64,000 bases of DNA from Mustelus asterias (Eukaryota). The position numbers were made by a program, and so were the translations under genes. Numbering within the stretch: the first letter of the stretch is position 1; the number at the start of each line of letters is the position of its first letter. The stretch covers positions 44,082,001-44,146,000 of the forward strand of contig NC_135823.1 of the NCBI RefSeq assembly GCF_964213995.1, read 5' to 3'. The notes beneath the pieces are model-generated. The model worked only from the letters and a program-made list of their open reading frames with translations. It was not told where the DNA came from and did not search any database. Below are positions 10,782 through 64,000 of this stretch, piece after piece.

Positions 10782-13371
10782 AAAAGAACAAAGAACAAAG
10801 AAAATTATAGCACAAGAACAGGCCCTTCGGCCCTCCAAGCCTGCATCGACCATGCTGCCCAACTTAACTAAAACCCCCTACCCTTCCGGGGACCATAGCT
10901 CTCCATTCCCATCCTATTCATGTACTTGTCAAGACAACCCTTAAAAGTCACTACCGTATCCACTTCCACTACCTCCCCCAGCAACGAGTTCCAGGCACCC
11001 ACTACTCTCTGTGTAAAAAATCTGCCTCGTACATCTCCTTTAAACCTTGCCCCTCGCACCTTAAACCTATGCCCCCTAGTAATTGACTCTTCCACCCTGG
11101 GAAAAAGCTTCTGACTATCCACTCTGTCCATGCCTCTCATAATCTTGTAGACTTCTATCAGGTCTCCCCTCAACCTCCGTCGCTCCAGTGAGAACAAACC
11201 AAGAACAAACCTCTCCTCATAGCTAATGCCCTCCATACCAGGCAACATCCTGGTAAATATTTTCTGTACCCTCTCCAAAGCCTCCACATCCTTCTGGTAG
11301 TGTGACAACCAGAATTGAACACTATATTCCAAGTGCGGCCTAACTATGGTTCTATAAAGCTGCAACATGACTTGCCAATTTTTAAACTCAATACCCCGGC
11401 CGATGAAGGCAAGCATGCCATATGTCTTCTTGACTACCTTCTCCACCTGCATTGCCACTTTCAGTGACCTGTTTACCTGTACACCCAGATTCCTTTACCT
11501 ATCAATACTCTTAAGGCTTCTGCCATTTACTGTATATTTCCAATCTGTATTAGACCTTCCAAAATGCATTACCTCACATTTGTCCAGAGATTAAACTCCA
11601 TCTGCCATCTCTCCGCCCAAGTCTCCAACTGATCTATATCCTGCTGGATCCTCTGATGGTCCTCATCGCTATCCACAAATCCACCAACCTTTGTGTCATC
11701 CGCAAACTTACTAATCAATCCAGTTACATTTTCTTCCAAATCATTTATATATATTATAAACAGCAAAGGTCCCAGCACGGATCCCTGAGGAACACCACTT
11801 GTCACAGCCCTCCATTCAGAAACGCATCTTTCCACTGCTACCCTCTGTCTTCTTTGACCGAGCCAATTTTGTATCCACCTTGCCAGCTCACCTCTGATCC
11901 CATGAGAGGCCTTATCAAAGGCCTTACTGAAATCCATGTAGACAACATCCACTGCCTACCCTCATCAATCATCTTCGTCACTTTCTCGAAAACCTTGATC
12001 AAGTTCGTGAGACACGACTTCCCCTTCACAAAACCATGTTGCCTCTCACTAATATGTCCACTTATTTCCAAGTAGGAATAAATCCTATCTCGAAGAATCC
12101 TCTCCAATAATTTTCCTACCATTGACGTAAGGCTCACCGGCCTGTAATTACCTGGATTATTCTTGCTACCCTTCTTAAACAAAGGAACAACATTGGCTAT
12201 TCTCCAATCCTCTGGGACCTCCCCTGTAGCCAGCGAAGATACGAAGATTTCTCTCAAGACCCCAGCAATTTCCTCCTCAATATTCTGGGGTATATCCCAT
12301 CAGGCCCTGGGGACTTGTCTACCTTAATGTTTCTCAAGATGCCAATACCTCCTCCTTTTTGATCTCAACATGACTCAAACTATCTGCACATCCTTTCCCA
12401 GACTCATCATCCACCAAGTCCTTCTCTTTGGTGAATACTGAAGCAAAGTACTCATTTAATACCTCGCCCATTTCCTCTAGCTCCATGCATAGATTCCCTC
12501 CCTTGTCTGTGAGTGGGCCAACCCTCTCCCTGGCTACCCTCTTGCTCTTTATATATGTATAAAAAGCCTTGGGATTCTCCTTAATCCTGCTGGCCAATGC
12601 TTTTTCATGACCCCTTTTAGCCCTTCTTACTACTTGCTTAAGTTTCTTTCTACTTTCCTTGTATTCCACACTTGCTTCATGTGTTCCCAGCCTCCTAGCT
12701 TTGACAAATGCTTCCTTTTCCTCTTCGAGTAGTCTCGCAATATCTCTCATTATCCAAGGTTCCCAAAACTTGCCATACTTATCCTTCATCCTTACAGGAA
12801 TGTGCCGGTCCTGAATCCCTATCAACTTACACTTGAAAGCCTCCCACATGCCAGATGTTGATTTGCCCTCAAACATCTGCCCCCAATCTACATTCTTCAG
12901 TTCCTGCCTAATATTGTTATAATTAGCCTTCCCTCAATTTAGCACCTTAACTTGAGGACTACACTTATCTTTATCCGTCAGTACCTTAAAGCTTACTAAA
13001 TTGTGGTCACTGTTCCCGAACTGCTCCCCTACTGAAACATCGACCACCTGGCCGGGCTCATTCCCCAATACCAGGTCCAGTATGGCCCCTTCCCTAGTTG
13101 GACTATCTACATACTGTTTCAGGAAGCCCTCCTGGATGCTCCTTACAAACGCTGCCCCATCCACACTCCTGGCACTAAGTGAGTTCCAGTCAATATAGGG
13201 GAAATTAAAATCTCCCACAACAACCCTGTTACTTTTACACCTTGCCAAAATCTGCCTACATATCTGTTCCTCAATCTCCCACTGGCAGTTGGGTGGCCTA
13301 TAGTAAATCCCCAACATTGTGATTACACCTTTCCTATTCCTGAGCTCTACCCATATTGCCTCGCTGTATGA
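10782..13371 (-). mobile_element. 5'-truncated CR1 LINE (APE endonuclease + RT, frameshifted), nested in an L2-like 3' fragment (~10690-10781 and 13372-13530)
   Basis: Successive ORF pieces with GDFN, LDLVL, SDH (endonuclease); NYRPVSLTS, DFSKAFD, GVPQGSVLGP, FADD (RT); RPHLEY and RRLRGDLIEVYK; (TTCTTTG)n tail. Confidence 0.95.
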
Positions 13372-13609
13372 TCCTCCTTTAACATATACCTCTTTGGCCA
13401 AATCTATGGTCATCTACCCTAATGTCACCTTAAATGTCAAAATTTGTTGTTTTTTCTAACACCCCTGTGAAGTACTTTGGGATGCTTTATTCTGTTGAAG
13501 GTGCTATATCATTACAAATTGTTGTTGTTGTTTCTGATCTTCCTATCATATTGTAGTTCCCTACAAAACTAAAACAAAACAATGAAGTTGGCGTCATCTG
13601 TGCCAATCT

Positions 13610-15098: not shown

Positions 15099-15924
15099 CT
15101 TGGTACCAGTATATCCAGCACTTTGCTGCCTCTGTCTCTGTGTATATCCAATATCCATCTCTAGCTCACTACCATGAACATGTCAATGTCCCAATAATCT
15201 TTTACTGGCCCATCCATTTAATAGTGAGAATATCTAAAGGAGCTCGGCTTATTCACCTCATATCACATGGCAGTATTACAAAGAAGAGCAGAAGAGGTTT
15301 CCCCCACGTGTCCTGACCAATATTTACTAATCGCCATTAGAATAAATAGATTATCTAGTCATTGTCACATTGCTGTTTGTGGGAACTTACTGCGTGTGTT
15401 ATCATATTTACCACAACAGTGGCTACAGTTGCTTCCGGAACTTCCAGTGCTATAACTGATGATACGGAACCATGAATAAAGATGCTCAATTATGGTGACC
15501 AAAGCTTAATAAGATAAATACTGTTGCATTTGCTAACATAATCAGATGTCATATGGTCAAAACAAGCACTGTGATCATGTCAATGTCCTAAGAATGCCAT
15601 TTTGCAACCCTATTGGAGCAGCTTGACACAGGAGACCCGATGAGTGTGACCGATTTGCTACCAGGAAACTGAGGTCTGAAAAACTAGAGGCCTGAGAAAT
15701 TTAATCTCGGATATGATCCCAAACAACCTGGAGTTAAATTCCAGTATCAATGACATCTTTTGAAACACAAGCTGAATATAAATTCCTACTACCAAAAGAG
15801 GGGGGGGGGGGACTTTTTTTTGAACAAGGAATGTTCCGTCATACTTCCCATTTACTTTAGCAGTAAGGTGGAGAATGTCCAACTGTACTTTTGATGTAAT
15901 GATATCACCCTTATCAATGTATTT

Positions 15925-16396
15925 GAGGGGTGTTTTGCCAGTTGATTGGGTTTTACCATGCTGTTTTACCAGTTGTTTGTGATTTTCAGGGCTATTTTAC
16001 CAGTTGTTTGGGACTTTCAGGACTGTTTGACCAGTTGTTTGGGATTTTCAGGGCAGTTTTCCCAGTTGCTTGGGTTTTTCGGGACTGTTTACCAGTTGTT
16101 TGGGATTTTCAGGGCTGTTTTACCAGTTGCTTGGGTTTTTCGGGACTGTTTTACCAGTTTCTTGGGTTTTTCAGGGCTGTTTTATCCATTGTTTTGGATT
16201 CTCTGGGCTGTTTTATCTGTTGTTTTGGATTTTCTGGGCTATTTTATCAGTTGTTCTGGATTTTTTGGGCTGTTTTACCTGTTGTTTGGGATTTTCTGGA
16301 CTGTTTTATCTGTTGTTTGGGATTTTCAGGGCTATTTTGCCAGTTGTTTGGGATTTTCAGGGCTGTTTTGCCAGTTGTTTGGGATTTTTGGGACGG
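15925..16396. repeat. 31-bp minisatellite, left part (~15 units)
   Basis: Degenerate tandem unit ACCAGTTGTTTGGGATTTTCAGGGCTGTTTT. Confidence 0.95.
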
Positions 16397-16714
16397 TGTG
16401 GTGAACCATCGTTGGTTACCACTGTGGGGTTATTCCAATGTTACTGTTGGGTTAGGGTGTTGACACTGTGGGGTTGTTATAATGTTGTTGTTGGGTTAGG
16501 GTGTTACACTGTGGGATTAATATACCTGTGGTGGATGCTGTTATGGCACATCCCGGTCGGGCCCCGCCTCCTGGGGAGAGGTATAAGACCCTCTGCTCAG
16601 GCGGGACCCCTCCAGTCTGGAATGGTGTACTCGTGTTTAGATAGTTCCATTGTTTGTCAATAAAAGCCTTCAATCGCTGAAGCCTTGTACCTCGTGCTTG
16701 ATTGTCGCGCATCA
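16397..16714 (+). repeat. 5' LTR (318 bp)
   Basis: TGTGG...CATCA; GC box CCCCGCC 16562-16568, TATAAG 16582-16587, AATAAA 16659-16664. Confidence 0.97.
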
Positions 16715-16715
16715 A

Positions 16716-16730
16716 TTTTATTGACAAACA
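16716..16730 (+). promoter_or_regulatory. Non-tRNA primer-binding-site position: 15-nt perfect complement of LTR nt 16651-16665
   Basis: TTTTATTGACAAACA is the reverse complement of TGTTTGTCAATAAAA. It starts 1 nt after the LTR end and there is no TGG. Confidence 0.75.
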
Positions 16731-16755
16731 CAAAACTCTCGACAGTAAAGAGAGT

Positions 16756-19700
16756 ATGGAGCAAATGCTGAAACCAGAGCGTCTGACGCTGGACCCACGT
16801 GCGGTCGGTGCCTCTAACACCTTCGACCACTGGCTGAAGTGTTTCGAGGACTACCTGGCGGCCTCTGCAGCAGTTACTACGGACAACGACAGACTCCAGG
16901 TCCTCCACGCGAGGGTAAGCGACACGGTCTATCTCGCGATTCGTGCGGCCACCACTTACCCGAGGACCATCGAGCTCTTGAAAAAACGATACACGAGACC
17001 ACCCAACGAGATTCACGCTCGTTACCTCCTCGCTACACGACGTCGGCAGTTGGGCGAAACCATGGAGGACTACGCCAATGAGCTCTTGCAGCTTGCCAAG
17101 GGCTGCGACTGCAAAGCTGTGTCGGCTGAGCAGTACATGTACGACCTCGCCCGAGATGCGTTCGTAGCAGGGGTAGGGTCCTCGTACATCCGGCTTAAGC
17201 TATTGGAGAAAGGGAACCTCAACCTGACCCAAGCGATGGAGATGGCTGAGATGCTGGAGGCAGCGTCGAAAAGCTTGGCTCTGTACCCCGAAGACCACGT
17301 GGAGACAACGTGGCAGGAGCAAGCACAAATCCCTCCTCGCCCCACGGGCTCGCGCTCCCATATCGACCCGACGACAGCGGCAGCTCCAGGCGGCCAGCGG
17401 TGCTATTTTTGCGGAGGAGCCAAGCATCCACAGCAACAGTGTCCAGCTAAAACGGTGATCTGCAGTCAGTGCGGTAAAAAGAGGCACTACGCGAAAGTCT
17501 GCAGATCGAAGCCCAAGAACGGCAGTGCAGCCTGTGACCCTCCAGAGCGGAGACAATCTCCTTCGGCGTCGCAGTATCCACGAGGTCCGACCACGTGCGA
17601 ATCCAGGACGACGCCATCGTGGCTGGCGGAGGAGGAGGATGACCACCAGGAGTTGCTACGCTTGGCGCCCTCACCCACGTGCGATTCATGGGGGCGGCCA
17701 TCGTGGTCGACGACGACCAGGAGCGACCAGCAGGGGTCCTCAGTATCAACCTCGGCTGCCTGCAGTGACGTCCAAGGGCCAACGGTGGCGTCGATCTCTC
17801 TGGACCAGACAAAGCATCACAGGCTTGACTGTTCGATGATGAACATCAAGGTAAATGGTCGTACTGCGTATTGTCTGTTTGACAGTGGGAGCACCGAGAG
17901 TTTTATTCACCCTGACACTGCAAAGAGGTGTGGACTCCGGGTTCTACCTGCCAAACAGACAATTTCTATGGCATCACGGTCCCGGTCTGTACCGATCCAA
18001 GGACGTTGTGTGGTAACCCTGGAGGTGCAGGGCACAATTTACGAGCGATACAGGCTCCTTGTGTTGCCGCACCTTTGCGCGCCAATTCTCCTCGGACTAA
18101 ACTTTATGGTCCACATGAAGAGTGTGATCCTACAGTACGGTGGGCCACTCCCTTCGCTGGCAGTAGGGAATCAGCCGCAGCCTCCAAATTGTCCAAAGCG
18201 CCCCGCATGCAATCTTTCCACACTAAAGATCACCACACCCTCTTTATTTAAGAATCTGGTACCAGGCTGCAAGCCCATCGCTACTAAAAGTAGGCGTTAC
18301 AGCGCTGAAGACCGGATCTTCATTAGATCTGAGGTTCAGCGGCTCCTCAAAGAAGGGATCATACAGCCCAGTGCTAGTCCGTGGAGAGCGCAGGTCGTGG
18401 TGGTTAAAAGCGGGAACAAACCCCGGATGGTCATCGACTACAGTCAGACCATTAACCATTATACGCAGCTGGATGCGTATCCTCTCCCGCGCATATCTGA
18501 TATGGTCAATCAGATTGCGCAGTACCGGGTGTTCTCCACCATAGACCATAAGTCCGCCTACCACCAACTCCCCATCCGCCCAGAGGACCGACAATATACG
18601 GCTTTTGAGGCGGATGGTCGTCTGTATCAGTTTCTTAGGGTTCCATTTGGTGTCACCAATGGGGTCTCGGTCTTCCAGCGTGCTATGGACCGAATGGTGG
18701 ACCAGAACGGGTTGCGGGCTACCTTCCCGTACCTGGATAACGTCACCATCTGCGGCCATGACCAGCAGGACCATGACACAAACCTCCAGAACTTTCTGCG
18801 CACTGCGTCTCGCCTGAATCTGACCTATAACAGGGAGAAGTGTGTATTCCGTACGCGCAGGTTAGCTATCCTGGGATACGTGGTGGAAAACGGGGTCATC
18901 GGCCCTGATCCAGACCGTATGCGCCCCCTTACTGAACTTCCCTTGCCCGCTAGCACAAAAGCACTGAGGAGATGCCTCGGCTTTTTTTCTTATTATGCGC
19001 AGTGGGCCCCCAACTACGCGGACAAAGCCCGTCCGCTCATCAAGTCCACGACTTTCCCACTCACGCCGGAGGCCCAATTGGCCTTCAAGGCTTTGAAAAG
19101 CGACATTGCGAAAGCCACGATGCACGCGGTGGATGAATCCATCCCTTTTCAGGTGGAAAGTGATGCATCGGATTTCGCCCTGGCCGCCACACTGAACCAG
19201 GCAGGCAGGCCCGTCGCGTTTTTTTCCCGCACCCTTCAAGGTCCCGAAATTCGGCATTCAGCGGTGGAGAAGGAGGCTCAGGCTATTGTGGAGGCCATCA
19301 GACACTGGCGCCATTACCTGGCGGGGAAGCGGTTCACCCTGATCACGGATCAACGATCCGTGGCGTTTATGTTCAGTAATACGCAGAGGGGCAAGATCAA
19401 GAATGATAAGATCTTGCGGTGGAGAATTGAGCTCTCCACCTATAATTACGATATTATGTATCGTCCAGGGAAACTCAATGAGCCCTCGGATGCCCTCTCG
19501 CGCGGAACATGCGCTATCATGCAGGAGGACCGCTTGAACGCCCTCCATAATGACCTGTGCCATCCTGGGGTCACTCGGCTCTACCACTTCATAAAAGCCC
19601 GTAACCTGCCCTACTCGGTGGAGGATGTCAGGTCTGTAACGAGAAGCTGTCGGATTTGCGCGGAATGCAAACCGCACTTTTATCGACCGGACCGGGCACA

Positions 19701-20730
19701 ATTGGTCAAGGCCACTCGCCCCTTCGAGAGGCTGAGTGTGGATTTTAAGGGCCCCCTTCCCTCAACGGACCGGAATGTGTATTTTCTCAATATCAGAGAT
19801 GAATACTCCCGGTTCCCGTTTGTTGTTCCCTGTGCGGACACGTCGACTGCCACAGTGATTAAGGCATTCAGTGATCTTTTTACCCTGTTCGGGTACCCCT
19901 GCTACATACATAGCGACAGGGGCTCGTCGTTCATGAGTAACGACTTGAGGCAATTCCTGCTCTCATACGGGATTGCCTCTAGTAGAACCACGAGCTACAA
20001 CCCTAGGGGTAACGGACAGGTGGAGAGAGAGAATGCTACAGTCTGGAAGGCTGTCCTATTGGCGCTGAAGTCCAGGGGCCTTCCAGTCTCCCGTTGGCAG
20101 GAGGTCCTTCCAAATGCGCTTCATTCCATTCGCTCCCTCCTGTGTACGGCAACCAATGCTACTCCCCACGAGAGGATGTTCTCATTCCCTCGGAAGTCGT
20201 CCTCGGGGATCTCCTTACCAGCCTGGTTGACGTACCCAGGACCCGTCCTTCTGCGGTGACATGTGAGGGCCCGCAAGTCCGACCCCTTGGTCGAACCGGT
20301 CCAACTCCTCCACGCCAACCCTCAGTATGCCTATGTGGCATATCCTGACGGGCGAGAGGACACGGTCTCGATTCGAGACCTGGCACCCGCAGGGGACGTA
20401 GCAACTCCTGTCGCTCCTATACCCCCTGTCACGAATCCCCTATCACTTCTTTCCTCCCCGGACGTGGCGCGGTCAGCACCGGGACCAGTGCATAACAGTT
20501 ATACTCCCATGTACAGCTTGCCTGAGACTCGGAGATCGGCGCCACCACAGAAGGTACCAGGATCCCCTGCACCACCGCTTCACCAGGGTCAACCGGCCCG
20601 GGAGTCCTCGAGGGGACAGCCGGACGCTGTTTTGGAGAGAACGCCACCGCAAGCACCTGCTCCGGTGTCACAACCGGTGTTGAGGAGATCACAGCGATGG
20701 TGCGGTCCTCCAGACCGTCTGGACTTGTAG
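16756..20730 (+). CDS. Gag-Pol polyprotein in a single frame (1324 codons) with one in-frame TGA at 20257-20259
   Basis: First ATG at 16756; two CCHC knuckles (CYFCGGAKHPQQQC, CSQCGKKRHYAKVC), protease LFDSGS, RT (PFG, YLDN), RNase H (ESDASD, EKEA, TDQ), integrase HHCC and D-D-E (DFKG, HSDRG, VEREN); ORF 20263-20730 continues in the same frame. Confidence 0.93.
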
Positions 20731-20783
20731 ATTTTTTTTGTATATATGTAAACTGTTTTCGCACCCCACCGGCCTTTGTTTTC

Positions 20784-20797
20784 AAAGGAGGGGTGAA
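20784..20797 (+). promoter_or_regulatory. Polypurine tract
   Basis: AAAGGAGGGGTGAA immediately 5' of the 3' LTR. Confidence 0.9.
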
Positions 20798-21116
20798 TGT
20801 GGTGAACCATCGTTGGTTACCACTGTGGGGTTATTCCAATGTTACTGTTGGGTTAGGGTGTTGACACTGTGGGGTTCTTATTATGTTGTTGTTGGGTTAG
20901 GGTGTTTACACTGTGGGATTAATATACCTGTGGTGGATGTTGTTATGGCACATCCCGGTCGGGCCCCGCCTCCTGGGGAGAGGTATAAGACCCTCTGCTC
21001 AGGCGGGACCCCTCCAGTCTGGAATGGTGTACTCGTGTTTAGATAGTTCCATTGTTTGTCAATAAAAGCCTTCAATCGCTGAAGCCTTGTACCTCGTGCT
21101 TGATTGTCGCACATCA
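20798..21116 (+). repeat. 3' LTR (319 bp)
   Basis: About 98% identical to the 5' LTR; TATAAG at 20984, AATAAA at 21061-21066. Confidence 0.97.
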
Positions 21117-22083
21117 GACGGTTTTATCAGTTTTTTGGCATTTTCTGGGCTGTTTTATCAGTTGTTTGGGATTTTCAGGGCTCTTTTGCCAGTTGTTTGG
21201 GAATTTCAGGGCTGTTTTATCAGTAGTTTGGGATTTTCAGGGCTGTTTTGCCAGTTGTTTGGGATTTTCAGGTCTGTTTTATCAGTCGTTTGGGATTGTG
21301 GGACTGTTTTATCAGTTGTTTGGGATTTTCAGGGCTCTTTTGCCAGTTGTTTGGGAATTTCAGGGCTGTTTTATCAGTTGTTTGGGATTTTCAGGGCTGT
21401 TTTGCCAGTTGTTTGGGATTTTTCTGGGCTGTTTTATCAGTTGTTTGAGTTTTTGGAGCTGTTTTGCCAGTTGTTTGGGATTTTCTGGACTATTTTGCCG
21501 CTGTTTGGGAATTTCACGGCTGTTTTATCAGTTTTTTGTGATTTTCAGGGCTGTTTTGCCAGTTTGGGATTTTCCGTACTGTTTTATCAGTTGTTTGGGA
21601 CTTTCAGGGCTGTTTTATCAGTTGTCTGAGTTTTTGGAGCTTTTTTCGCAGTTGTTTGAGTTTTTGGAGCTGTTTTCCCAGTTGTTTGGGATTTTTCTGG
21701 GCTGTTTTAACAGTTGTTTGGGACTTTTAGGGCTGTTTTATCAGTTGTTTGTGATTTTTTGGGCTTTTTGCCAGTTGTTTAGGATTTTTGGGACTGTTTT
21801 ATCAGTTGTTTGGGATTTTCAGAGCTGTTTTATCAGTTGTCTGAGTTTTTGGAGCTTTTTTCCCAGTTGTTTGGGATTTTCTGGGCTGTTTTACCTGTTG
21901 TTTGGGACTTTTAGGGCTGTTTTATCAGTTGTTTGGGATTTTCAGGGCTGTTTTACCTGTTGTTTGGGACTTTTAGGGCTGTTTTATCAGTTGTTTGGCT
22001 TTTCGGGGCTGTTTTACCAGTTGTTTGGGATTTTCAGGGCTGTTTTACCAGTTGTTTGGGATTTTCAGGGCTGTTTTACCAGT
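21117..22083. repeat. 31-bp minisatellite, right part (~31 units)
   Basis: Same unit as 15925-16396; the array resumes in register after the TSD. Confidence 0.95.
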
Positions 22084-30754: not shown

Positions 30755-31215
30755 TTAATTTTGATTTGATTTATTATTGTCATATGTATTAATATACAGT
30801 GAAAAGTATTGTTTCTTGCGCACTATACAGACAAAGCATACCGTACATAGAGAAGGCAAGGAGACGGTGCTGAATGTAGTGTTACAGTCAGAGCTAGAGA
30901 AAGATCAACTTAATATAAGGTGTTCAATTCAAAAGTCCGATGGCAGCAGGGATGAAGCTGTTCTTGAGTTGGTTGGTACGTGAACTCAGACTTTTGTATC
31001 TTTTTCTATGTCCGGGGTGCATGGGTCCTTGATTATGCTGGCTGCTTTTCCAAGGCAGCGGGTAGTGTAAACAGAGTTAATGGATGGGAGGCAGGTTTGA
31101 GTGATGGACTGAGCTTCGTTCACGACCCTTTGTAGTTTCTTGCGGTCTTGGACAGAGCAGTAGCCGTACCAAGCTGTGATACAACCAGAATGTTTTCTAT
31201 GGTGCATCTGTAAAA
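30755..31215 (-). mobile_element. Rex1/Babar-type LINE 3' fragment
   Basis: GCITAWYGYCSVQDRKKLQRVV..IIKDP; (AATCA)n tail. Confidence 0.8.
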
Positions 31216-32737: not shown

Positions 32738-32935
32738 TTGATTTGATTTATTATTATCACATGTATTGGCATACAGTGAAAAGTATTGTTTCTTACGTGC
32801 TATATAGACAAAGCATTCCATTCATAGAGAAGGAAAGGAGAGAGTGTAGAATGTAGTGTTACAGTCATAGCTAGGGTGTAGAGAAAGATCAACTTAATGT
32901 GAGGTAGGTCCATCCAAAAGTCTGATGGCAGCAGG
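32738..32935 (-). mobile_element. Rex1-type LINE 3' end
   Basis: Same 3' UTR and tail as 30755-30960. Confidence 0.8.
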
Positions 32936-60179: not shown

Positions 60180-60282
60180 TATTCTATGATGATGATTTGA
60201 CAGATGCATTTTTTCAGACAATCTACAGAATTTTGAGTAATCTGAAAAATCGGAGCATCATTTATCTTTCTGTAGAGAAAAG
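60180..60282 (+). CDS. METTL22: METTL22 coding exon 8 (gene continues beyond the window)
   Basis: ttgcag|(V)FYDDDLTDAFFQTIYRILSNLKNRSIIYLSVEK(R)|gtaag; 103 nt. Confidence 0.96.
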
Positions 60283-61744: not shown

Positions 61745-62128
61745 TGACACTGTGCGCAAACCAGCCTCCCAACCATTGACTCTGTCTACACTTCCTGCTG
61801 CCTTGGCAAAGCAGCCAGCATAATTAAGGACCTCACACACCCCGGACATTCTCTCTTCCACCTTCTTCCGTCATGAAAAAGATACAAAAGTCTGAGGTCA
61901 TGTATCAACCGACTCAAGAACAGCTTCTATCCTGCTGTCATCAAACTTTTGAATGGATCTACCTTGCATTAAATCGACCTTTCCCTGCACCCTAGCTATG
62001 ACTGTAACACTACATTCTGCACTCTCTCGTTTCCTTCTCTATGAACAGTATGTTTTGTCTGTATAGTGCGCAAGAAACAATACTTTTCACTGTATGCTAA
62101 TACATGTGACAATAATAAATCAAATCAA
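61745..62128 (+). mobile_element. Rex1-type LINE 3' fragment
   Basis: Homologous to 30755-31215; (AATCA)n tail. Confidence 0.82.
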
Positions 62129-62963
62129 AGTCTTTTTCTGAAGTTTACGTGGGCATTTTGCAGCATGTAGCGAGTGCAATGCTATTAGTGGATTCTCATC
62201 TCTGGATCCCTGGAGCATTTAATTCTATTGCCTTTAAAACAGACCCTTTCTTACATCTGATTATAATGAATCAGGTATTCAAAATTGTCTATTGGTTTTT
62301 TGTAAAATGATGCTTATCTGTCCTAGAGTGAAAATGATCTTTGAGTTATTGCATTTGATCCCTACGTGAAACATACAGCAGCTGCAGTGTAAAATAAATG
62401 AGGCAGAAGCAACTCAGAATGAAGTGCTGTCAGCTCTTGGTTGCACCACAACTCTTAATTTTATTTCTGTTCTCTGAGCTTTTCTTTTAAAGAGCAACGT
62501 TTGTATTTTTAGCAGTGAAGCCCAGCAGGGCCTTCCAAAGACTTTCCAGTCAGAAATGAAAGCTGTCATCGTACAAGATCCACATGAACAGCAGTTTTGT
62601 GCTGTTCTGGAATCTGTCCTGCAAAGCAAATGAACCAATTTGCGCGACAGTGGAAGAATCACTTGAACATGTCTTAACATAAAGGCAGCACCTGCGCAAT
62701 AGTAAAAAATAGAGTTGAGGCGCTAATTGCAAATTGTTTTAAATGTGTCCATTGGCATTTTCCCTGTTGTAACTGTTGCCAAATGGACTACCTGGTTTAC
62801 AATCTTAATATAAAATTCTTCAGTGATTGCCTGCTTGGAATGCTTATGAAAAAGTACAGCAGATTGTTTCTTTAAGGCAAGAATCTTGGGTGGAGTGTGA
62901 GGAGGCAGACGACGCAGTCTCCCCTCCACAATAATGGTCTAGCAGCTGTGGCCACAAATAATT

Positions 62964-63300
62964 TTTTTTTAATACTTTTCCAATTCAATCAAATCAAATC
63001 CAATTCAGAGTCTCAACAAGTTGAGACATTTCGGATCCAGGCTGACAAGACAGGGCGAGCGACCAAACCACCCTGTCCTGGGCCTGATCTACATGAGCCA
63101 AGCTGATTGGAGAAGGGGGAGGTTACTCCTCCAAGACTTGAGCTCATTTGCATCTTAGCCAAAAGGCCGAGATGCCGCTTTTAAAAATTGCTTCATATGA
63201 AACATATGAAGCCTCAGCGTAACCTAATGACCTCGACCAAGTGCGGCCGACCATGGGCTGCCGACCATACACTTGATCTTAGCCAAAAGGCCGAGAAGCG
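62964..63300 (-). mobile_element. U2 snRNA-headed retroposed element (candidate SINE or chimeric retrocopy)
   Basis: Minus strand begins CGCTTCTCGGCCTTTTGGCTAAGATCAAGTGTA (U2 nt 3-35; 63300-63268); second U2 segment (nt 7-27) at 63172-63152; A-tail (T-run 62962-62970); TSD GCCACAAATAATT at 62951-62963 and 63300-63312. Confidence 0.85.
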
Positions 63301-63699
63301 CCACAAATAATTATCTAATTTCCTTACACCTTCAGTGTGTCTTCACCCTTGAGGTGCCCTCATGTTCACCTGCCTGTTGCAGTTGAGCCCTCCTCTCTAG
63401 ATGGAGCTTGTAGTCTTGACCAGGAAGTGTAGACAGACTTTTTTGTAAACTACAGTTTGATGAAGCCGTCTTCGAAAAGGAATCAAAATAGACTGGCACA
63501 ATAAGCTGTTGTCCACAGTATTTTGACTGATGCAATAGCTTATAAAATTCAGTATGAAGGCTGCTACCCAGGGGATCCAAATCCTTTCAGTGATCAGAGA
63601 TTCCCAAGTTGCTGAAGCATAACTTTTCGTTTCCCTGGTATTCTCAGCAATCTCCACCAACAAGTTTTACTGTACATCAAACTGTAGTTTACAAAAAAG

Positions 63700-64000
63700 C
63701 CTGTCTACATTTCCCGCTGCCTCGGGGACATTCTCTCTTCCACCTTCTTTCATTGGGAAAAAGATACAAAAGTCTGAGGTCACATACCAACCGACTCAAG
63801 AACAGCTTCTTCCCTGCTGCTGTCAGACTTTTGAATGGACTTACTTTGCATTAAGTTGCTTTTTCTCTACACCCTAGCTACGACTGTAACACTACATTCC
63901 GCACTCTCTCCTTTCCTTCTCTATGAACGGTATGCTTTGTACAGTGCGCAAGAAACAATACTCTTCACTGTATACTAATACATGTGACAATAAATCAAAT
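63700..64000 (+). mobile_element. Rex1-type LINE 3' fragment
   Basis: RYKSLRSHTNRLKNSFFPAAVRLLN plus a 3' UTR like 61870-62128. Confidence 0.82.

Follow-up and report, generated by a model that had tools for sequence, protein, structure and literature searches.

The window analysed here, a 64,000-nucleotide stretch of Mustelus asterias DNA, carries METTL22 exons on the plus strand from 25118 to 60282 that encode amino acids 1-324 of the Mustelus asterias protein P0001, and the residues within these exons are identical to those of P0001, which places the DNA in M. asterias or a very close relative. With a translated exon as the query, 15 METTL22 proteins were retrieved, all of them from sharks or rays. 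Amino acids 325-396 of P0001 had no credible match within the 64-kb window, and the next exon presumably lies beyond position 64000. Judged from this mapping, the U2-headed element described below would sit antisense in the METTL22 intron that follows the exon ending at 60282. The initial annotation had likewise placed it antisense in a METTL22 intron; the gene assignment holds, as the exons match the Mustelus asterias protein, and the placement in the next intron follows by inference.

Other repeats share the window with this element. An LTR retrotransposon at 16415-20921, which we take to be gypsy-like, contains an uninterrupted 1185-codon frame with protease, RT, RNase H and integrase domains; it sits between two 31-bp tandem-repeat blocks (15922-16388 and 21121-22083) and looks recently inserted. 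A broken LINE on the minus strand (10868-13413), presumably CR1-like, contains endonuclease and RT domains. LINE 3' end copies that are 80-88% identical and carry a short pentanucleotide tail are present at 61757-62129, 63726-64000, 30760-31099 and 32738-32935, and the 3' segment of the U2-headed element has pentamers similar to this tail in the opposite orientation. Finally, a 40-bp inverted repeat (38/40; 63423-63462 and 63675-63714, ~250 nt overall) lies 110 nt upstream of the element, and 63423-63714 is possibly a small non-autonomous DNA transposon.

The element itself spans window positions 63300-62962 on the minus strand and is ~339 nt long (Table 1). We found an A9 tail and a target site duplication (TSD) that is perfect over 13 bp (63312-63300 versus 62963-62951), in agreement with the A-tail and 12-13-bp TSD first reported. 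LINE machinery leaves such ends, a TSD together with an A tail, when it inserts by target-primed reverse transcription. When an upstream repeat of at least 11 nt was sought within 60-1000 nt of each of the 35 runs of at least seven A in the window, the run of the element was the only one to have such a repeat; as a looser background, a second occurrence 330-370 nt downstream was seen for 103 of 61,950 window 13-mers. The mammalian L1 motif is poorly matched at the nick site. No U2 sequence follows the A tail, where the 3' flank consists of the TSD and intron sequence, and the target is not U2-like. The immediate flanks are not repeated elsewhere in the window. Twin priming is ruled out, as the U2 sequence and the tail are co-oriented. 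The element overlaps no ORF of more than 76 codons, and neither the ORF listing nor a comparison of translated body frames with protein collections detected an ORF remnant in it. The TSD and A tail thus support the earlier proposal of a retroposed non-coding insert with a target-primed signature, and a U2-headed, TSD-flanked, A-tailed, non-coding retroposed insert is confirmed as real.

Table 1. Features of the U2-headed element and its surroundings (window positions)
Feature	Start	End	Strand	Remarks
Last METTL22 exon of the window	60180	60282	+	mapping of Mustelus asterias protein
3' target site duplication	62951	62963	-	13 bp
A tail	62962	62970	-	9 nt; last two A common to TSD
Low-complexity T/G/A-rich 3' segment	62971	63009	-	ATTAAA from 62973 runs into tail
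Terminal hairpin F	63010	63027	-	7 bp
Hairpin E	63034	63089	-	19-23 bp; C/UCA 1x3 internal loop as in D
Hairpin D	63093	63147	-	20 bp; C/UCA 1x3 internal loop
Perfect octamer (Oct1 site of snRNA enhancers)	63146	63153	-	overlaps hairpin C
Hairpin C	63150	63175	-	second U2 piece folded as U2 stem I plus 3 extra pairs
Single-stranded A/U linker with T5 run	63177	63189	-	Sm-like site of initial annotation; chance-level match
Hairpin B	63190	63212	-	perfect, 10 bp
Antisense arm pairing U2 nt 11-34 of head	63221	63244	-	20/24 pairs: 14 Watson-Crick, 6 G-U
Apical hairpin capping helix A	63245	63267	-	non-U2
Head, U2 snRNA nt 3-35	63268	63300	-	33/33 identical
5' target site duplication	63300	63312	-	13 bp; last C common to TSD and U2 nt 3

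The head (63300-63268, minus strand) corresponds to nt 3-35 of the U2 sequence given in S1 Fig of PMC4640811 at 33 of 33 positions, so that the identity to U2 claimed in the initial annotation is borne out. It ends inside the U2 branch-point recognition sequence, and U2 sequence beyond nt 35 was not detected in the element. A second piece at 63175-63152 matches U2 nt 4-27 at 23 of 24 positions; the 21-nt segment noted earlier is present within it as an exact 21-mer (nt 7-27). While the head is 100% identical to U2, this internal piece has drifted. A 20-nt U2 pattern allowing up to three mismatches occurs at two places in the window and in none of 100 shuffles. The element had also been called dimer-like, and this description stands for the repeated U2 piece but fails for the rest, as 1143 of 2000 shuffles scored as well as the comparison of the non-U2 left part with the non-U2 right part. 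As a side observation, the linker that ends one base before the second U2 piece (63189-63177) matches the TSD at 8 of 13 positions; fewer than 1% of window 13-mers match so well, but the value is the best of 10 offsets. This linker could be the relic of an older target site.

Rfam returned a partial U2 match (E 6.2e-5, 35.3 bits) under the gathering score of 46, and no family reached its gathering score anywhere in the 64 kb. For the non-U2 parts, the best E value was 0.36 on the right and nothing was returned on the left, and the body therefore appears to hold no known ribozyme, snoRNA or miRNA family.

Seven motifs were scored against 400 shuffles, with consensuses some of which came from PMC5493778. 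The sequence AATTTTTA is indeed present after the first hairpin, where an Sm-like site had been proposed, but it is one mismatch off the Sm consensus used and matches no better than chance: an equally good match occurs in 289 of the 400 shuffles, and in 216 of the 372 window tiles. The observed match was reached by 187 shuffles for Sp1, 384 for PSE, 386 each for STAF and CCAAT and 389 for the 3' box, and by 8 for the octamer. The octamer at 63153-63146 was one of the seven motifs tested and overlaps hairpin C, and it is possibly there by chance. It lies ~185 nt before the 3' end of the element, near the position of an snRNA enhancer for a downstream tandem copy; no PSE matching that would-be position was found. 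An internal or 3'-located snRNA promoter is accordingly unsupported, with all motifs except the octamer at chance. Because the 320 nt upstream of the element contain no convincing PSE or octamer (the best PSE has three mismatches), this copy does not constitute a transcription unit of the U2 type. We also rejected a U2 snRNA gene or variant, given the sub-gathering Rfam score, the chance-level Sm and 3' box matches and the three-mismatch PSE. Transcription by Pol III is unlikely because the element contains three T runs of at least four (T4, T5 and T4), and the same oligo-T argument is made for SINEU in a passage of PMC4494074. Only mismatched box-like words were found in the element and no exact match to the A or B box consensus used. 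A classical Pol III SINE with a tRNA, 5S or 7SL head was discarded on the basis that there is no tRNA, no such Rfam match and no exact box.

The element RNA is predicted to fold into a dense structure, with a minimum free energy of -145.6 kcal/mol (z -8.5) that none of 100 shuffles reached. Among 180 folded window tiles, the 70 that were GC-matched had a mean of -86.6 and a minimum of -120.1; one GC-richer tile folded lower than the element, at -155.2. The element strand (-145.6, 19 G-U pairs) folds better than the opposite strand (-112.0, 9 G-U pairs), although the latter is also non-random (z -7.1), which counts against the reading that we prefer. For the right-hand non-U2 part alone, z was -6.4 on the element strand versus -3.0. 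Mean pair probabilities of helices A-F ranged from 0.93 to 1.00, with 0.97 for helix A. The three hairpins named in the initial annotation (63190-63212, 63049-63077 and 63010-63027) were all recovered in place, and the U2 sequence is held in stable helices in both pieces.

Helix A had not been noted before. In it, the arm at 63244-63221 forms an ungapped duplex with the part of the head that corresponds to U2 nt 11-34. By count this pairing is modest, as 20 pairs of 24 also arose in 24 of 1000 shuffles and in 9 of the 412 window tiles; the signal is stronger by energy, as that of the head-arm duplex was reached by 1 of 1000 whole-body shuffles and 0 of 1000 left-body shuffles. The helix is strand-specific (-38.3 on the element strand versus -18.2). 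Compared with a perfect U2 complement, the arm has pair-keeping transitions at 6 of 15 sites and pair-breaking ones at 0 of 9 (Fisher p 0.037), in a test biased by the fact that the arm itself was picked by its pairing. Three bases of the second U2 piece are unlike U2, and all three lengthen its stem I. Given that a 24-nt arm further downstream pairs with nt 11-34 of U2, the U2 head seems to be built into the predicted element RNA and masked within it, which argues against a one-off chimera. The maintained pairing of the arm and the stem I-extending changes in the U2 piece lead us to infer that the predicted RNA structure is under selection, and a one-off chimera would not show such selection.

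Helices A, D and E may have a common stem core, although this is suggestive only. In post hoc comparisons with 2000 shuffles, with hairpin boundaries and stem-core tests chosen after inspection, the numbers scoring as well (global/local) were 119/280 for A/D, 7/273 for A/E and 2/47 for D/E. A pattern built from the stem cores of the three helices had three matches in the element and none across 125,800 other bases; when loosened, it gave three in the element versus three elsewhere.

On the opposite strand, METTL22 pre-mRNA presents 33 nt (63268-63300, plus) perfectly complementary to the U2 5' end, and these are less well masked on the METTL22 strand than on the element strand. It is possible that this stretch affects splicing of the METTL22 intron.

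Self-BLAST and a pattern search recovered no second copy of the element in the 64-kb window, which likewise holds no partner LINE sharing its 3' end. SINEU densities of 137 to ~7,700 per genome are given in part of PMC4494074, and because a lone copy in 64 kb is expected at such densities, it says little. Translated frames of the non-U2 body gave no match in two word-indexed protein searches, which, like the HMMER search, are weak tests. The HMMER protein search with the body frames gave two weak partial matches, P0016 and P0017, both single-member records that match at 49-55% over query residues 15-40 in four stretches each; they look too divergent and partial to be copies of the element. The single GTDB match, L001, was dismissed as fortuitous, being 23 nt long and lying within a bacterial ORF. 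No shark U2-headed SINE was found in the literature, with thin coverage of subscription papers and Repbase Reports. Because a repeat table for Octopus lists SINE classes 'U' and 'U-L1' (part of PMC13282606), U-labelled SINEs have been annotated outside crocodilians. A database entry for the element may possibly exist already.

Taken together, we consider it fairly likely that the element is one copy of a SINEU-like, non-autonomous retroposon family moved by L1/Tx1-type machinery. The copy looks young and near full-length, and it is probably a new SINEU-like variant in sharks. Under this model, Pol II would transcribe a master locus from an outside promoter, supplied either by host read-through or by a U2-type promoter, the latter being an option because only 2 nt separate the first base of the head from that of U2. 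An L1/Tx1-type ORF2, a partner suggested by the poly(A) tail and 13-bp TSD, would then be primed on the A tail and insert the cDNA. The arm may have been kept since it would sequester the part of the U2 head that pairs with U6 and the branch point, and would stabilise the 5' end. If many copying rounds shaped the structure in this way, sister copies should exist.

In the boldest reading, the arm of a headless element RNA might bind U2 nt 11-34 in trans as a splint, allowing the RT to jump and renew the head, an arrangement that we regard as doubtful. Such trans pairing would put U2 nt 35 beside the element's own 5' end, a perfect head would be renewed at each insertion, and snRNA-headed SINEs would have arisen independently in sharks. 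The head-arm pairing stops 1 nt short of the head-body junction, which fits this arrangement, as does a head that is perfect next to an internal U2 piece that has drifted, and the arm-U2 duplex in trans is favourable in silico (~-13 kcal/mol). Repeated head additions are described for crocodilian SINEU-2 in a section of PMC4494074. The data separate neither renewal in trans nor simple inheritance of the head in cis from the other.

The dense structure fits a functional RNA equally well. The locus could be a polyadenylated pseudogene, derived by retroposition from a functional shark non-coding RNA of low copy number, such as a U2-variant snRNA-like gene, whose structure would be kept for its function, and we judge this unlikely. 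The very strong, strand-biased fold, the start at the U2 5' end and the single-stranded U run between hairpins all speak for it, as do known snRNA pseudogenes that carry a poly(A) extension and a TSD (part of PMC4476161). However, the Sm and 3' box motifs match no better than chance, the fold sequesters the functional region of U2, and Rfam gives only partial U2 matches and no other family. Poly(A)-extended U2 copies make up 0% of the human set as reported in the same part of that paper (PMC4476161).

Descent by internal deletion from a U2-headed Tx1/Keno LINE, giving a non-autonomous element with only the 5' and 3' UTRs kept, is in our view quite unlikely. Some crocodilian Tx1 families bear U1 or U2 heads according to a passage of PMC4494074, and Keno inserts at about U2 nt 37-38, one GUA unit from the junction seen here (parts of PMC6136364 and PMC4640811). 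Yet a simple deletion leaves the second U2 piece in the middle of the element unexplained, no ORF remnant was detected, and the target is not U2-like. A one-off chimera formed by a template switch from the 3' end of an mRNA or other RNA onto U2 is very improbable, even though a single copy was seen in the 64-kb window and LINE machinery commonly gives rise to 3'-truncated snRNA copies and to snRNA chimeras (part of PMC4476161), as the body pairs with the head and holds a second, diverged U2 piece, the fold has a z of -6.4 even without the U2 sequence, and the U2/L1 chimeras in the portion of PMC4476161 concerned are inverted, whereas the U2 and tail of the element are co-oriented.

If the element is a young, intact U2-headed retroposon of a shark, then the SINEU design either originated a second time or dates back much further. 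No SINE class other than SINEU is known to carry heads from spliceosomal snRNAs. The sections of the founding paper that treat its transcription and the way in which heads are re-added left both open (PMC4494074). Renewal of the head in trans, if true, would explain mechanistically how U1/U2 heads came to be added repeatedly in crocodilian SINEU. The head-masking arm suggests how a parasite may carry a working spliceosomal RNA end without disturbing splicing. A SINEU-like shark family would also be a tractable system, as its master locus, start site and partner LINE could be read from an alignment of the copies. If the element instead proves to be single-copy, it would point to an undescribed structured shark RNA.

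Several known systems bear comparison with the element. SacSINE1 and CmiSINE are also short non-autonomous retroposons of chondrichthyans, but as described in part of PMC5499810 they have tRNA-related heads, Deu or CORE domains and L2-derived tails and are not U2-headed. Processed snRNA pseudogenes and U/LINE chimeras have in common with the element a 3'-truncated snRNA piece, a TSD and LINE-type insertion; in the passages that describe them, they are independent one-off events without body pairing to the snRNA piece (PMC4476161, PMC5322556).

Keno (Tx1 clade) and Utopia (NeSL clade), as partly described, also have a U2 junction near the branch-point recognition sequence. These are autonomous, ORF-bearing retrotransposons with RT and endonuclease that reside in U2 genes, whereas the element has no long ORF and lies in an ordinary intron. 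According to the relevant part of PMC4640811, U2 nt 39 is the first position of their 3' flank, and the corresponding part of PMC6136364 gives 37 nt for the Keno U2 position. The head of the element stops at U2 nt 35 and the Keno-type 5' junction is at nt 38, with nt 33-35 and 36-38 being the same triplet. Loss of one GUA unit would reconcile nt 35 with the Keno site, and the junction neither supports nor excludes a link.

The closest likeness is to the crocodilian SINEU families, of which none was described outside crocodilians in the pertinent sections of Kojima 2015 (PMC4494074). As described there in part, SINEU-1 and the element both have a short U2-derived 5' piece, repeated U2-derived pieces or a partial duplication, a 3' body that is not from U2 and has no recognised LINE source, poly(A), a length of <500 bp, internal oligo-T and no evident internal promoter (PMC4494074). 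The TSD is ~10 bp in some SINEU-1 copies and 13 bp in the element. SINEU-1 copies are old (83-92% to the consensus) and prefer Mariner-N4_AMi, whereas the element looks young, and an arm antisense to the head, present in the element, is not among the features described for SINEU-1 in those sections (PMC4494074). In SINEU-3 the 5' U2 piece measures 32 bp, compared with 33 in the element, and as set out in the same portion of the paper it is followed by 83 bp from the middle of U2, as in a U2 with an internal deletion; no such fragment was detected in the element (PMC4494074). The hosts of SINEU-1 are crocodilians and that of the element is a shark, so that by host it is not one of the named crocodilian SINEU-1/2/3 (part of PMC4494074). 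The likeness to crocodilian SINEU proposed at the outset nevertheless holds in the U2 head, the A9 tail, the TSD, the size of <500 bp, the oligo-T and the lack of a visible internal promoter, and we suggest by analogy, from structure and published description rather than from body sequence, that the element would work like SINEU.
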